From the NCBI GenBank assembly GCA_964631935.1, contig CAZWAV010000001.1, forward strand, positions 116,482-180,481: a DNA stretch of 64,000 nt, given 5' to 3'. The position numbers and the translations under genes were made by a program. Shown here in pieces: positions 1 to 44,408 of this stretch. The notes beneath the pieces are model-generated. The model made no database searches. It was given only the letters and a program-made list of their open reading frames with translations, and was not told the origin of the DNA. Source of the stretch: an uncultured Candidatus Saccharibacteria bacterium (GTDB taxonomy: Bacteria; Patescibacteriota; Minisyncoccia; Phycocordibacterales; UBA9973). How positions within the stretch are numbered: the first letter of the stretch is position 1; every line of letters begins with the position of its first letter.

Positions 1-909
1 ATGCAGTTATTTTCAAAAACAAGCTTAATAGACGCAAGTCGTGAATATAACAATATTATCTCTTTCAATAAAAATATTAGAAATCATATTGTAGATCTAA
101 AGCAACAAGTAGACAATCTAACTATTTCAAAAAATCAAAAAGAGAGTGAACAGCAGAATTTAAACAAACTAAAAAAATCTTTAGTAGACAAAAAGCTTGC
201 TGTTGATGCTGCGAAGAAAGAGAAAGATACTCTTCTTTTTGAAACAAAAAATCAAGAATCAGCCTATAAGAAACTTCTCGCTGAAAGTCAGAAGAAGAGG
301 GATGCTTTCGAAAAAGATTTAGAGAATTATGAAGCTCAATTAAAATTTATCCTTAATCCAAATCTATTACCAGGGGAAGGATCTGGTATATTGTCTTGGC
401 CTCTTGATAACATATTCATCACTCAGCTATTTGGCAAGACAGTTTCAGCAAAAAGATTGTATGTTTCTGGGTCACACTCTGGTGTAGATTTTAGGGCGAG
501 CATAGGTACGCCAGTAAAATCTATGGGAAGCGGTGTTGTTGTCGGTACTGGTGACACTGATCTATATTGTAAAGGTGCATCTTTTGGTAAATGGGTATTT
601 ATAAAATACAATAACGGTCTATCTAGTACTTTTGGTCATTTATCAGTCATTTCATCAAGCGCCGGACAGAGTGTAAATACTGGTGACGTAGTTGGATTCT
701 CAGGTAATACTGGACATTCTACTGGTCCACATTTGCACGTCGCAGTCTATGCTTCTCAAGGAGCAGATGTGAAGACAGTGCCAAGCCTTAGTTGTAATGG
801 TAAAACATTCACTATGCCTATAGCTCCAGTGAGTGCCTATCTTGACCCAATGCTCTATCTACCTAAGCTATCAGGCTCAATGATTAAGAATGACACCCGA
901 AGAGACTAA
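1..909 (+). CDS. M23 family metallopeptidase with N-terminal coiled-coil (EnvC/NlpD-like); possibly 5'-partial at window edge
   Basis: 302-aa ORF. The N-half is a K/E/Q-rich coiled coil. The C-half carries M23 motifs HSGVD (HxxxD) and GPHLHVAV (HxH). Confidence 0.8.
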   Translation: MQLFSKTSLIDASREYNNIISFNKNIRNHIVDLKQQVDNLTISKNQKESEQQNLNKLKKSLVDKKLAVDAAKKEKDTLLFETKNQESAYKKLLAESQKKRDAFEKDLENYEAQLKFILNPNLLPGEGSGILSWPLDNIFITQLFGKTVSAKRLYVSGSHSGVDFRASIGTPVKSMGSGVVVGTGDTDLYCKGASFGKWVFIKYNNGLSSTFGHLSVISSSAGQSVNTGDVVGFSGNTGHSTGPHLHVAVYASQGADVKTVPSLSCNGKTFTMPIAPVSAYLDPMLYLPKLSGSMIKNDTRRD

Positions 910-2835: not shown

Positions 2836-2864
2836 TTGACAGATTTAAGTTTAATATATATAAT
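2836..2864 (+). promoter_or_regulatory. sigma70-type promoter TTGACA-17nt-TATAAT immediately after gatB stop
   Basis: TTGACA at 2836..2841, exact 17-nt spacer, TATAAT at 2859..2864. Confidence 0.55.
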
Positions 2865-2870
2865 CCTTTT

Positions 2871-3225
2871 TATGGGTATGAAGTTTATAAAGTGACTTCT
2901 AGACCTGGGGATTAAAGACCCTCCGTATACACGGAGGGTCCTAATTTAAAAATTTTGATCTTTGTTGATAGGGCCGCTATTGGTCCATTCATGTTGGTTG
3001 TTTTAAGGGTTAAAGAGGATTCCCCTCGGTTTTCCGGGGGGAATTTATAAAAAATTTGATCTTTCTAAATTATTTAAGATGCAAGTGTTTGTTTCAGAGA
3101 ACAAACGGCTCTCTTTTTTATAAGGATAAGTAGAGAGCCATTTTAAATCTTTTCTCATATAGCAGCTTTAGCAACTGCATAGTTTTGGTAAGGCCTTTCT
3201 GGAAACAGAGAGGCTTTTTTATTTA
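2871..3225 (+). ncRNA. candidate non-coding RNA (~350 nt, unknown family) between gatB and the DUF1653 gene
   Basis: No ORF of 60 aa or more. It is bounded by a consensus promoter and an intrinsic terminator. It contains two perfect or near-perfect 10-bp GC-rich hairpins (2917..2940 and 3020..3043), each followed by a conserved AATTT(A)AAAATTTGATCTTT box. Confidence 0.3.
3193..3224 (+). terminator. rho-independent terminator
   Basis: Hairpin GCCTTTCTG-gaaa-CAGAGAGGC followed by TTTTTTATTT. Confidence 0.5.
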
Positions 3226-3246
3226 TAAACCTGATATAATTTAACT

Positions 3247-3471
3247 ATGGAATCAAAAGTAAAACTCGGCAAGTATAGACATTTTAAAGGGGGTACAGTG
3301 GAAGTCATTGGTGTCGCCAAAAACTCTGAAAATTATGAGGAGGAATTTGTCGTTTATATCCATCCATATGGAGGTCATGATCAAATATGGATTCGCCCAG
3401 TGGCTATGTTTGGAGAGTTTGTAGAACGTGATGGTCATAAAGGTCCAAGATTTGAATATATAGGTGAATAA
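3247..3471 (+). CDS. DUF1653 family protein
   Basis: 74 aa. Family-typical KYRHFKGG...VVY...G...WIRP...F...PRFEYIGE pattern. Confidence 0.55.
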   Translation: MESKVKLGKYRHFKGGTVEVIGVAKNSENYEEEFVVYIHPYGGHDQIWIRPVAMFGEFVERDGHKGPRFEYIGE

Positions 3472-3487
3472 ATGATATAATTTTGCT

Positions 3488-4534
3488 ATGAAATTATTTA
3501 AAAAGGATTCTAAAAAGATTCGCGTAGCTATTAATGGATTCGGGCGCATTGGCAGAGCATTTGTAAAAGTTGCTTGGGATAGACCAGAGATTGAAATTGT
3601 TGCTGTAAATGATCTTGGATCACTAGACTCACTAGCTTATCTTCTAAAACATGACACTGTATATCGTAACTGGAATCATGAAGTAAAGCATGATGGTAAG
3701 AATATATGGATTGATGGCAAAGAAGTTCATTTCGTTTCTGAAAAAGATACAACAAAGCTTCCTTGGAAAGATTTAAATATAGACGTAGTTGTTGAATCGA
3801 CTGGACTCTTCACTTCATATGATAAAGCAAAATTCCACATTGATGATGGTGCGAAGAAAGTAGTTATTTCTGCTCCGTCAAAAGGTGGAGAAGGGAATGT
3901 CCCAGGCGAAACAATACTTCTCGGTATAAATGAAGAAAAGTTTGGCACATGTGATATAACTTCAAATGCATCTTGTACGACAAATGCTGCTTCTCCTCTT
4001 ATTGGAATTCTTCATGAAGCTATTGGTATAGAGAAAGCAGTTCTTTCAACTACCCATGGATATACAGCATCTCAATCTCTTGTAGATGGTCCAAGCAAGA
4101 AAGACCTCCGTGAAGGCCGTGCAGCAGCTCAGAACATTGTCCCAAGCTCAACTGGTGCTGCTATTGCAGTCACTGAAGCTTTTCCAGACCTTAAAGGCCT
4201 ATTTGATGGTATATCTCTTCGTGTACCAGTACCTGCAGGATCTATAGTAGATATTACATTTATCTCAAAGCGTCCGACTACAGTTGAAGAAGTAAATAAT
4301 ATTTTAAAGAAAGCAGCAGCAAGCGAAAAGTGGAGTACATTATTTGCTATTACAGAAGAGCCATTAGTTTCAAGTGATATTCTCGGTGAATCTCATGCTT
4401 CAATTGCAGACCTTGCTATGACTCGCGTTATTGGAGGCAATCTTGTGAAAGTCCTCGGTTGGTATGATAATGAAATGTCTTACACTCACACACTTGTAGA
4501 CCATGTTATAAAGACAGGGAATACTATAAAATAA
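3488..4534 (+). CDS. gap: type I glyceraldehyde-3-phosphate dehydrogenase
   Basis: 348 aa. NAD-binding INGFGRIGR and the catalytic region SNASCTTN. Confidence 0.9.
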   Translation: MKLFKKDSKKIRVAINGFGRIGRAFVKVAWDRPEIEIVAVNDLGSLDSLAYLLKHDTVYRNWNHEVKHDGKNIWIDGKEVHFVSEKDTTKLPWKDLNIDVVVESTGLFTSYDKAKFHIDDGAKKVVISAPSKGGEGNVPGETILLGINEEKFGTCDITSNASCTTNAASPLIGILHEAIGIEKAVLSTTHGYTASQSLVDGPSKKDLREGRAAAQNIVPSSTGAAIAVTEAFPDLKGLFDGISLRVPVPAGSIVDITFISKRPTTVEEVNNILKKAAASEKWSTLFAITEEPLVSSDILGESHASIADLAMTRVIGGNLVKVLGWYDNEMSYTHTLVDHVIKTGNTIK

Positions 4535-5311: not shown

Positions 5312-5356
5312 ATATTTTTATTATAATATGTTTTAATTAAATGGTATAATATCCCC

Positions 5357-5791
5357 ATGAAAGTCTATATCGGATCTGACCACGCTGGATATGAATTGAA
5401 AGAAAAGCTTAAAATCTATTTAAGTGAGCTTGATTATGAAGTCGAAGACATGGGTGCATTTGAACTTGAAAAGGACGATGACTATCCAGACTTCATAAAG
5501 CCAGTAGCCCATGCTGTAGCGGATGATCCTGAAAGTTTAGGAATTGTTTTAGGTGGAAGTGGAGAGGGCGAAGAGATGGCCGCAAACAAGGTGGAAGGCA
5601 TAAGAGCCACTGAATACTATGGTGGTAATTTAGAAATTGTAAAACTTTCACGTGAGCACAATAATGCCAATGTTCTTTCTCTTGGGGCAAGATTCGTAAA
5701 AGAAGATGAGGCCAAAGAAGCAGTTAAAATATTTTTAGAAACTCCATTTTCAAATGAAGAGCGACATATCCGTAGAATAGAAAAAATATGA
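5357..5791 (+). CDS. rpiB: ribose-5-phosphate isomerase B (RpiB/LacAB family)
   Basis: 144 aa. MKVYIGSDHAGYELKE N-terminus typical of RpiB. Confidence 0.85.
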   Translation: MKVYIGSDHAGYELKEKLKIYLSELDYEVEDMGAFELEKDDDYPDFIKPVAHAVADDPESLGIVLGGSGEGEEMAANKVEGIRATEYYGGNLEIVKLSREHNNANVLSLGARFVKEDEAKEAVKIFLETPFSNEERHIRRIEKI

Positions 5792-10777: not shown

Positions 10778-11650
10778 TTGCACATGAAGACACTGCGTGA
10801 ATGCATAAAAGAAGCAAGCGAAAAAGGTGTGGCAATAGGACATTTTAATATTTCTAATTTAGAAGGCCTGCACGGCATATATCAGGCAGCAAAAAAACTT
10901 TCACTTCCAGTTATTATTGGTGTGTCTGAAGGCGAAGAGGCATTCGTTGGACGTGAAGAAGCAGTGGCTCTTGTTCGAACACTAAGAGAAAAGGATAATT
11001 ATCCAATCTTTCTAAATGCTGATCACCATGCATCATTTGAAAGTGTAAAAGCTTGTATTGATGCTGGTTTTGATATGGCGATTATAGATTGCGCCAAATT
11101 AAGTTTTGAAGAGAATGTAAAAATTACAAAACAATGTGTCGACTACGCTCGCAGTGTAACGAAAGAAACAGGCAGGGATATTCTGATTGAAGCTGAACTC
11201 GGCTATATAGGTTCTGGTTCTACTATAAAAGATACAATACCTGAAGGAGCGGGAGTGCTTACTACAGCAGAAGATGCAGAAAAATACGTCGAAGCAACTG
11301 GTATTGATCTGTTTGCCCCTTCAGTCGGATCTATACATGGACTCATTAAAAGTGGCAAGCCACATATTGATAGTAAGCGAGTTGCGCAGATCAAAGAAGT
11401 TACAGGTATTCCACTAGTGCTACATGGTGGTTCAGGGCTTAGAGATGAAGACTTTACCAATGCAATTAAGGCTGGAATCTCAATTGTACACATAAATTCA
11501 GAACTCAGACTTGCTTATGAACAAGCTGTCGGAAAGTTTATAACAGAAAATCCAGAAGAAATAACGCCAGCTAAAATACTACAGCCAGCAGTTGATGCTA
11601 TTGAGAAGATAGTAGAAGCTCGACTTAACCTTTTTAATAATATTAAATAA
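10778..11650 (+). CDS. fba: class II fructose-bisphosphate aldolase
   Basis: 290 aa. GHFNISNLEG and LNADHHAS metal-binding motifs. A GATATAAT -10 element lies upstream. Confidence 0.85.
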   Translation: MHMKTLRECIKEASEKGVAIGHFNISNLEGLHGIYQAAKKLSLPVIIGVSEGEEAFVGREEAVALVRTLREKDNYPIFLNADHHASFESVKACIDAGFDMAIIDCAKLSFEENVKITKQCVDYARSVTKETGRDILIEAELGYIGSGSTIKDTIPEGAGVLTTAEDAEKYVEATGIDLFAPSVGSIHGLIKSGKPHIDSKRVAQIKEVTGIPLVLHGGSGLRDEDFTNAIKAGISIVHINSELRLAYEQAVGKFITENPEEITPAKILQPAVDAIEKIVEARLNLFNNIK

Positions 11651-44210: not shown

Positions 44211-44408
44211 TTACGCGCGTTGTACGTTTACAGCACTAGGTCCCTTTGCAGTTTCCTCAGTGTCAAAAGTAACAGCGTCACCTTCACGTAGTTCGTCGAA
44301 CTGTACGTTTACAAGAGAGTTACTGTGAAAGAATAAATCCTTCGCAAGTCCTTCTGCTGTGATGAAACCGAAACCTTTATCAGTAAGCTTTTTTATTGAG
44401 CCAGTCAT
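44211..44408 (-). CDS. cold-shock protein (CspA family)
   Basis: 65 aa. RNP1 KGFGFI and RNP2 VFFHS-like motifs. Confidence 0.85.
   Translation of the reverse strand: MTGSIKKLTDKGFGFITAEGLAKDLFFHSNSLVNVQFDELREGDAVTFDTEETAKGPSAVNVQRA

Follow-up and report, generated by a model that had tools for sequence, protein, structure and literature searches.

A candidate small-RNA unit of four diverged copies downstream of gatB in a Paceibacteria-type bacterium, with a terminal motif that recurs in uncultivated phages

We examined the intergenic stretch at positions 2836–3224 of a 64,000-nt window of contig CAZWAV010000001.1 (hereafter the window; all coordinates without a contig handle refer to it). 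It separates gatB from a gene of the DUF1653 family in a bacterium that the labels of its GatB homologues place among Paceibacteria/Nomurabacteria-type members of the candidate phyla radiation (CPR). Our leading reading, held tentatively, is that this stretch is an independent promoter-to-terminator unit of the small RNA (sRNA) kind. By its alignments, the stretch is four head-to-tail, diverged copies, each 85–101 nt long, of one small hairpin-ended RNA unit. The last copy carries a motif of approximately 65 nt, and the best reading of this motif is that it is an undescribed RNA motif shared horizontally between a Paceibacteria lineage and uncultivated phages. An earlier, sequence-only reading had drawn attention to two GC-rich hairpins, each followed by an A/T box, in a candidate structured non-coding RNA of about 350 nt. 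The object of interest proved to be the terminal motif and its tandem, decaying copies rather than the two hairpins.

Four diverged copies of one hairpin-ended unit

The stretch opens with a promoter that matches the consensus at 12 of 12 positions and closes with an intrinsic terminator at 3190–3217, made up of a 12-bp stem, a GAAA loop and the T-tract TTTTTTATTT. From the gatB stop (2832) to the DUF1653 ATG (3247), the longest open reading frames (ORFs) encode 37 amino acids on the minus strand and 31 amino acids on the plus strand (TTG start). The sequence-only reading had reported this promoter, this terminator and the lack of any ORF of 60 amino acids or more, and all three held. The hairpins and boxes that it described are present as well. 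Hairpin 1 (GACCCTCCGT/ACGGAGGGTC, 2917–2940) is complementary at 10 of 10 positions and hairpin 2 (arms 3019–3029 and 3034–3044) at 91%, and the boxes TAAAAATTTTGATCTTT (2947–2963) and TAAAAAATTTGATCTTT (3048–3064) are identical at 16 of 17 positions with a spacing of 101 nt. We found a third hairpin with an A/U tail, formed by GGCTCTCT...AGAGAGCC at 3107–3139 and followed by ATTTTAAATCTTTTC. The window has a GC content of approximately 35%. The predicted fold of the 355-nt RNA reached −123.7 kcal/mol, compared with −84.6 ± 5.5 kcal/mol for dinucleotide shuffles (z = −7.1), and none of 100 shuffles folded as well.

These elements fall into four consecutive units behind one promoter (z scores are from local alignments compared with shuffles):

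2836–2864, plus strand: sigma-70-type promoter, TTGACA-17-TATAAT, consensus match 12/12
About 2871, plus strand: transcription start predicted from this promoter
2862–2956, plus strand: unit 1, with CCUUUUUAUGGGUAUG at 2865–2880, a short hairpin at 2880–2899, linker GGGGAUUAAAGA, the GC hairpin at 2917–2940 and an A/U tail at 2941–2956; aligns with unit 1 (U1) of related contig L172, z = 7.9
2957–3057, plus strand: unit 2, with GAUCUUUGUUGAUAG, a short hairpin at 2971–2986, linker GUUGUUUUAAGGGUUAAAGAGGA, the GC hairpin at 3020–3043 and tail UUUAUAAAAAAUUU; aligns with unit 1, z = 5.4
3058–3146, plus strand: unit 3, with GAUCUUUCUAAAUUA, a short hairpin at 3087–3106, the hairpin GGCUCUCU-17 nt-AGAGAGCC at 3107–3139 and tail AUUUUAA; aligns with unit 4, z = 3.9
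3147–3224, plus strand: unit 4, the conserved core, with AUCUUUUCUCAUAU, a short hairpin GCAG...CUGC at 3162–3178, AUAGUUUUGGUAA at 3179–3191, the terminator hairpin at 3192–3215 and a U tract; supported by model R1, by relatives and by viral contigs

The units follow a common plan, in which a U-rich UCUUUUCUCAUA segment ending in CAUA is followed by an optional short hairpin, a AGUUUUGGUAA-like segment, a GC hairpin and a U-rich tail. Within the window, each unit has a 5' segment of the form (G)AUCUUU..., then a short hairpin, a linker rich in G and U, and a larger hairpin that leads into an A/U tail. Unit 3 and the terminator region also share direct repeats (D2 and D3). Alignments involving the related contig extend the series: the two units of L172 (U1 and the core unit U2) align with each other with z = 8.3, and window unit 4 aligns with L172 U2 with z = 3.7. 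Unit 4 scored 41 bits against model R1 (E = 1e-6), with unit 4 itself among the sequences from which the model was built. L172 U1 gave a full-length but weak match (18.9 bits), and unit 3 gave a full-length match at 3067–3146 that is not significant alone (9 bits, E = 4.8). Partial model matches to the extra units span the hairpin and tail only, and copy 4 is the sole copy in the window that has kept the family consensus.

On these alignments, hairpins 1 and 2 are diverged paralogues of the terminator hairpin, and what looks like an A/T box is the tail of one unit joined to the 5' segment of the next, the first box (2947–2963) spanning units 1 and 2. The proposed hairpin-and-box modules do align with each other, but three of them, not two, precede the terminator, and the two are not a pair of special sites, being diverged tandem paralogues of the terminal unit. 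With 2 matches at one mismatch against 1.5 expected, the 13-nt box alone shows no enrichment in the window. A self-search found no further copy of the region or the box within the 64 kb, Tandem Repeats Finder detected no tandem array, and we saw no terminal inverted repeats or target-site duplications around the cassette. A GC stem-loop followed by a T-tract is found at 3190–3217 and in nearly all members of the family; units 1–3 qualify as terminators weakly, because their T-tracts are interrupted.

The terminal motif recurs in uncultivated phages

The window and the related contigs L085, L172 and L175 share their 3' 65–75 nt, approximately, in which UUUUC(U)CAUA and AGUUUUGGUAA are separated by a variable stretch and a GC hairpin with a U tract follows. 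Searching viral contigs of IMG/VR with a 22-base core pattern returned 13 matched contigs where approximately 0.01 would be expected. This expectation follows from a control pattern of 15.5 effective bases, on which it was calibrated and which gave 56 purely random matches. Looser patterns added further viral instances, bringing the number aligned to 19. Two more contigs carry the motif, L184, in which it is cut at the contig end, and L201, which has a weaker variant. Across the family, UUUUCUCAUA is followed, after a variable stretch, by AGUUUUGGUAA and then by a covarying hairpin, usually with a UUUCUA loop, and a U tail.

The alignment shows which parts of the motif are held constant. The hairpin is 95.5% paired and has two-sided changes at 8 of its 9 pairs; none of 500 shuffles, and no slid register, comes close. 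The single-stranded segments, approximately 28 bases, are nearly invariant. They do not overlap the terminator arm, and the spacer in between ranges from 0 to 7 nt. Scanning the viral collection with the 3' segment and loop but without the 5' segment gave new matches that were random only, so the 5' and 3' segments always travel together. A scan of the same collection for the hairpin-1-plus-box pattern gave no matches.

Each viral contig contains one copy of the motif, in flanks that are unrelated to one another, and no protein family recurs beside it in these contigs. It follows genes for portal proteins, tail fibres or endolysins, or a tRNA, and precedes early genes of the ERF and AAA_24 families. 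In L181 and L186, it is antisense to its surroundings, between two minus-strand genes, so it cannot terminate those neighbours. In L189, TTTG-19-TATATTTG lies directly upstream of the motif, a site that fits the Bacteroidota promoter consensus. L178 has an integrase gene approximately 300 bp from the motif; because homologues of this integrase are labelled Chitinophagaceae, at least one of the motif phages probably infects a host in that family of Bacteroidota. BLAST searches with the motif found no match in 50,697 cultured-phage records and, among the PLSDB plasmids, a chance match to the hairpin only. Searching papers by sequence returned nothing relevant to the motif.

Several viral contigs have further features near the motif. 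L195 encodes a permuted two-piece transfer-messenger RNA (tmRNA; RF04321, 58 bits, E = 5e-9) at 5562–5782, approximately 1 kb downstream of the motif. In L198, a GC-rich element of approximately 100 nt (11317–11415), with a closing stem of GCCACCGUCCCG/CGGGGCGGUGG, lies between a gene end and the motif; it had no Rfam match at E ≤ 0.01, and the related contig L197 has a tRNA at the equivalent position. The L198 element may be an undescribed structured RNA with the motif as its 3' end. In three related contigs, L177 (on the minus strand, immediately downstream of 4937), L179 and L185, three exact 11-nt direct repeats come after the motif, with a sequence particular to each phage (GTGCGATAACG, GGTGTAATGTT and GATGCGTATTT), and a conserved AAAAATACNTTCCATTTTTGTAYCAG then lies just ahead of the capsid/protease gene. 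These repeats resemble operator sites of a late promoter, specific to each phage.

Copy number varies at one junction among close relatives

We compared the gatB–DUF1653 junction among relatives whose GatB is 79–88% identical to that of the window. In five of them (L005, L088, L091, L176 and L190; GatB 79–86% identical), only 1–4 nt separate the two genes. L005 was the only close relative among the matches listed in our GatB-guided scans of genome and metagenome contigs, most of which were distant relatives, and it has no insert. The junction is approximately 125 nt long in L175, where DUF1653 is absent and a single unit lies directly before gap, the glyceraldehyde-3-phosphate dehydrogenase (GAPDH) gene. 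It is approximately 165 nt in L090 and L173, which have one diverged unit each; 185 nt in L085 and approximately 270 nt in L172, which have two units (partly deleted in L085); and approximately 410 nt in the window, with four. Each insert has TTGACA at its start and a terminator at its end, followed by a leaderless promoter. The −35 element TTGACA lies directly behind the gatB stop in all six insert-bearing CPR variants, L085, L090, L172, L173 and L175 among them, and its spacing to the −10 element is proper in five of the six. Presence of the insert is patchy on the GatB tree, within a shallow radiation.

A structured RNA of about 350 nt is thus not what relatives have in common, as they carry between zero and four units at this site. 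An nhmmer comparison of the whole 414-nt stretch with 84 loci recovered nothing beyond identical copies belonging to the same organism. A small ORF conserved across relatives had been raised as the result that would make the stretch an mRNA; no such ORF is present at the junction among them. A test for compensatory changes in the two hairpins had been suggested; hairpin 1 keeps its pairing through two two-sided changes relative to L172 (GACC/GGTC versus GTTC/GAAC). The losses seen in L085 (described below) indicate that the 5' hairpins are dispensable.

Leaderless genes and promoter classes around the unit

The gene order is gatB (1417–2832), the stretch, the DUF1653 gene (PF07866; 74 amino acids, 3247–3471) and gap (3488–4534). 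The true ATG of gatB is at 1417; the ORF program extended the gene further upstream, over a tRNA-Leu gene (1328–1410). Both genes downstream of the stretch have promoters of their own:

3232–3249, plus strand: leaderless promoter, comprising the extended −10 element TGATATAAT (−10 at 3232–3240) and the DUF1653 ATG (3247)
3473–3481, plus strand: extended −10 element of gap (ATG at 3488), with the same geometry

In both cases, TGaTATAAT ends 6 nt 5' of the ATG, whose A is 7 nt downstream. As a −10 element lies right before each ATG, DUF1653 and gap are read as leaderless and self-sufficient. The arrangement is common in the window: a TAnnnT element ends 5–9 nt 5' of the ATG in 32 of 65 ORFs of at least 100 amino acids, compared with 12% of control ATGs. 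The genome is therefore predicted to be largely leaderless, with about half of the window's genes using this layout. Most of the leaderless −10 elements read TGnTATAAT (for example, at 3232–3249, 3473–3490 and 5340–5359).

Promoters with a full −35 element form a separate class of 13 sites in the window (TTGACN-16..18-TAnnAT). Those checked precede leadered small-protein genes, and the site at 2836 is the only checked one that fires into an ORF-free stretch. Targets of this class include a cold-shock protein gene at 44211–44408 (minus strand). At the upstream end of the locus, the gatB ATG is only 7 nt past the 3' end of tRNA-Leu(UAA), which suggests a tRNA–mRNA co-transcript that would be processed to a nearly leaderless gatB message.

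Comparison with known RNA families and cassettes

No Rfam 15 family reached its threshold in the stretch, where the best score was 20.7 bits against a threshold of 47, and ARAGORN detected no tmRNA. This agrees with the earlier failure to see a tmRNA, RNase P, signal recognition particle or 6S signature. Only three tRNAs were found by Rfam in the whole window. The motif alone scored at best 19.9 bits against a threshold of 81, and nothing was found at the motif in the viral loci.

The sole Rfam families that align at all are PrrF, Spot 42 and MicX, and they do so through the architecture of sRNA 3' ends. Like these sRNAs, the window locus is a promoter-to-terminator unit without an ORF, in which a conserved A/U-rich single strand lies directly 5' of a GC terminator hairpin and a U tail, and like the sibling genes PrrF1 and PrrF2 it is duplicated in tandem. 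However, the scores of 18–20 bits are far from gathering thresholds of 80–90, so membership does not apply. The locus also differs from sibling sRNAs in that its extra copies lack promoters of their own, its motif is shared with phages of another phylum, and it has no known Hfq-type partner or target.

Small intergenic cassettes include the promoter/stem-loop cassettes of T4-type phages and the BOX, REP and Correia-type elements. These too are short hairpin modules at gene junctions, whose presence varies between close relatives, whose internal module number varies and which can supply a terminator or a promoter. Unlike BOX, REP and Correia elements, the motif is found once per contig and combines a conserved single strand with a covarying stem. 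A dispersed repeat or miniature inverted-repeat transposable element was rejected as an identity, given one locus in the 64-kb window and one copy per viral contig.

Lambda-type nut sites consist of boxA, a spacer and the boxB hairpin. The motif resembles them in having a linear conserved segment, UUCUCAUAA (loosely boxA-like, with approximately 7 of 11 bases matching by eye), a spacer and a hairpin with a conserved UUUCUA loop. In contrast to nut sites, its hairpin is followed by a U tract and thus forms a terminator, and it is found at operon ends rather than just past early promoters.

Two array systems were also considered and rejected. The order of promoter, tandem RNA repeats, terminator and protein gene recalls type III toxin–antitoxin loci (ToxI), but the window's units are 85–101 nt long and strongly diverged, whereas ToxI repeats are 34–36 nt and near-identical. 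No near-identical repeats were found by Tandem Repeats Finder, no ToxN-like gene is present at the window locus, and DUF1653 is uncoupled from the array, occurring without it in relatives and being absent beside the array of L175. TIGR arrays occur in CPR bacteria and phages, encode 36-nt RNAs in 5–15 repeats, have edge and loop repeats and adjoin a Tas gene with a Nop domain (PMC12045711). The likeness is that of a terminator-ended tandem RNA array in CPR bacteria and phages (PMC12045711). The window's units differ in being approximately 90 nt long without a periodic repeat or regular repeat/spacer pattern, and the neighbours encode GatB, DUF1653 and GAPDH.

An sRNA-like unit or a terminator cassette

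The stretch has the predicted attributes of an independent sRNA gene, namely its own promoter, its own terminator, sequence conservation and no conserved ORF. We infer transcription, and any action in trans, along the following lines. Transcription would start at about 2871 and yield RNAs that end at the strong terminator near 3220, and some RNAs may end earlier, at the weaker hairpins and U tails of units 1–3. The invariant single strands immediately preceding the terminator hairpin would form the active part of the RNA, binding a target RNA or protein as the 3' modules of base-pairing sRNAs do. Units 1–3 would be paralogues in decay, contributing mainly stable hairpins at the 5' side. Incidentally, the cassette would also block read-through from gatB, leaving DUF1653 and gap to run from their own leaderless promoters.

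The main alternative, which we consider somewhat unlikely, is a terminator/insulator cassette without action in trans, an efficient intrinsic terminator whose conserved upstream element aids termination or 3'-end stability. Such a module would spread horizontally, and its duplication at this site would have given a series of terminators that insulates DUF1653 and gap from gatB; the promoter in front would then be incidental or a leftover of the cassette's arrival. A GC hairpin with a T-tract in nearly all instances fits this alternative, as do the extra units, which look like weak terminators. Presence or absence at a single junction among close relatives likewise resembles module insertion.

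Several observations weigh against an sRNA-like function, some of them in favour of the terminator cassette. In most of the phage contigs, the motif lies just past the stop of a co-oriented gene, at the end of a portal, lysis or tail operon, where a plain terminator would sit too. Decay is visible in the CPR copies. Relative to L172, L085 is missing 39 nt, including arms of two hairpins, and L172 itself has lost 10 nt of its promoter spacer, which suggests relaxed constraint in that lineage. Together with the variable number of units, these lesions mean that the 5' part is not under strong constraint and that the 350-nt RNA as such is not conserved. At the orthologous site in L090 (4524–4595) and L173 (approximately 1575–1660), a diverged unit consisting of UUUUCAUAUGGCAAGCAAUCGUUAAGG and a hairpin is found, with the 3' conserved segment replaced. 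The core there reads GCAAGCAAUCG..., so the AGUUUUGGUAA segment is not indispensable; this diverged core, used as the control pattern above, had 56 matches in the viral collection, all random or coding. Units 2 and 3 have no significant individual match to model R1, and their homology to the core thus depends on a chain of pairwise alignments and is not direct. Finally, complements of the conserved segments are not enriched within the window, and no target was found there.

Operon-end placement and decaying CPR copies are thus what favours the terminator/insulator cassette. On the other side, approximately 28 near-invariant bases upstream of the stem are needless for a terminator, and the single strand is more conserved than the stem, which drifts by compensatory change. 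A consensus promoter that fires only into terminators has been kept in five of the six CPR variants. In the phages, L189 has a promoter-like site of its own, and the L181 and L186 copies run antisense to the genes on either side. For these reasons, we favour a functional transcribed RNA over a bare terminator.

Less likely readings of the stretch

We regard as improbable a cis-regulatory leader, in which DUF1653 and gap would be expressed from the 2836 promoter behind a 375-nt attenuator or riboswitch, with conditional read-through of the terminator or terminators. Other TTGACA-type promoters in the window do precede leadered genes, and the unit of L175 lies directly before gap. An alternative pairing is also available: the 5' arm of the unit 3 hairpin (3103–3118) can pair with its own partner (3132–3143) or with the 3' arm of the terminator (3203–3218), to which it is 81% complementary over 16 nt (repeats I2 and I6). 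This antiterminator-like pairing is most simply a by-product of the partial duplication of the terminator that repeats D2 and D3 record. We found no conserved sensing or aptamer-like domain competing with the terminator, the 5' part ranging from zero to four units among relatives with 85–88% GatB identity, and no Rfam riboswitch or leader family matched. The self-sufficient promoters of DUF1653 and gap, the separation of the conserved segments from the terminator arm and the placement of the phage motif before unrelated or opposite-strand genes all speak against a leader.

Still less probable are sites that act at the DNA level, whether for protein binding, as an attachment site (attP core) or as an origin-like element. 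The sequence-only reading had offered a novel sRNA or tandem protein-binding sites; a non-coding promoter-to-terminator unit is there, but nothing supports binding sites in DNA. One copy per phage contig, the integrase gene near the motif of L178 and A/T-rich boxes that contain GATC would suit a DNA site. Against this, the stems covary and have a strand-specific T-tract, as expected for RNA, and the window has no further copies of the boxes. An attP/attB core was rejected as an identity: among the annotated flanks, an integrase adjoins the motif only in L178, and the homologous integrases found in host contigs lie beside tRNA genes, with the motif absent from their surroundings. As for an origin, the boxes bear a loose likeness to the Escherichia coli origin 13-mer GATCTnTTnTTTT, but they occur at a single locus and lie on the transcribed strand. 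A Bacteroidota −7 box was proposed for TAGTTTTG within the motif and discarded, as the variable insert breaks the spacing and the start would fall at the terminator hairpin.

The least probable reading is an mRNA for very small proteins, perhaps type I toxin-like (TTG-start ORFs at 2955–3050 and 3056–3133, both beginning MIF, or the 37-amino-acid minus-strand ORF at 3045–3158): TTGATCTTT, present in both boxes, translates as Met-Ile-Phe, the hairpin 3' arms have GGAGG or G-rich stretches 14–17 nt upstream and the complement of the core motif always has ATGAGAAAA or ATGAAAA, but L172 and L085 read MFFY-stop at the same places on the plus strand, the minus-strand ORF ranges from 4 to 37 codons across instances and the frames differ between phage instances.

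Implications for regulatory RNA in CPR bacteria and in phages

A further-reaching form of the sRNA-like reading, which we think unlikely, is that the motif represents a small regulatory RNA of a new, horizontally mobile class. It would be used by Bacteroidota phages and ultra-small CPR bacteria, act on a shared conserved partner (a protein or mRNA 5' ends) and have been amplified in tandem in this CPR lineage. UUUUCUCAU is the complement of AUGAGAAAA, with which a leaderless message starting Met-Arg-Lys begins.

To our knowledge, almost nothing is known about regulatory RNAs in CPR bacteria (Patescibacteria), and the classical sRNA chaperones are not established there. The locus yields a candidate sRNA family with an alignment, a covariance model and real covariation. 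It is also a rare instance of a short RNA motif that CPR genomes have in common, almost to the base, with phages that are probably those of Chitinophagaceae, which indicates horizontal movement of a very small regulatory module. The genomes compared, with zero, one, two or four copies, capture the growth and decay of such a module through tandem duplication. Should it be only a terminator with a conserved upstream element, the motif would still point to a sequence-specific signal for termination or for protection of RNA 3' ends.

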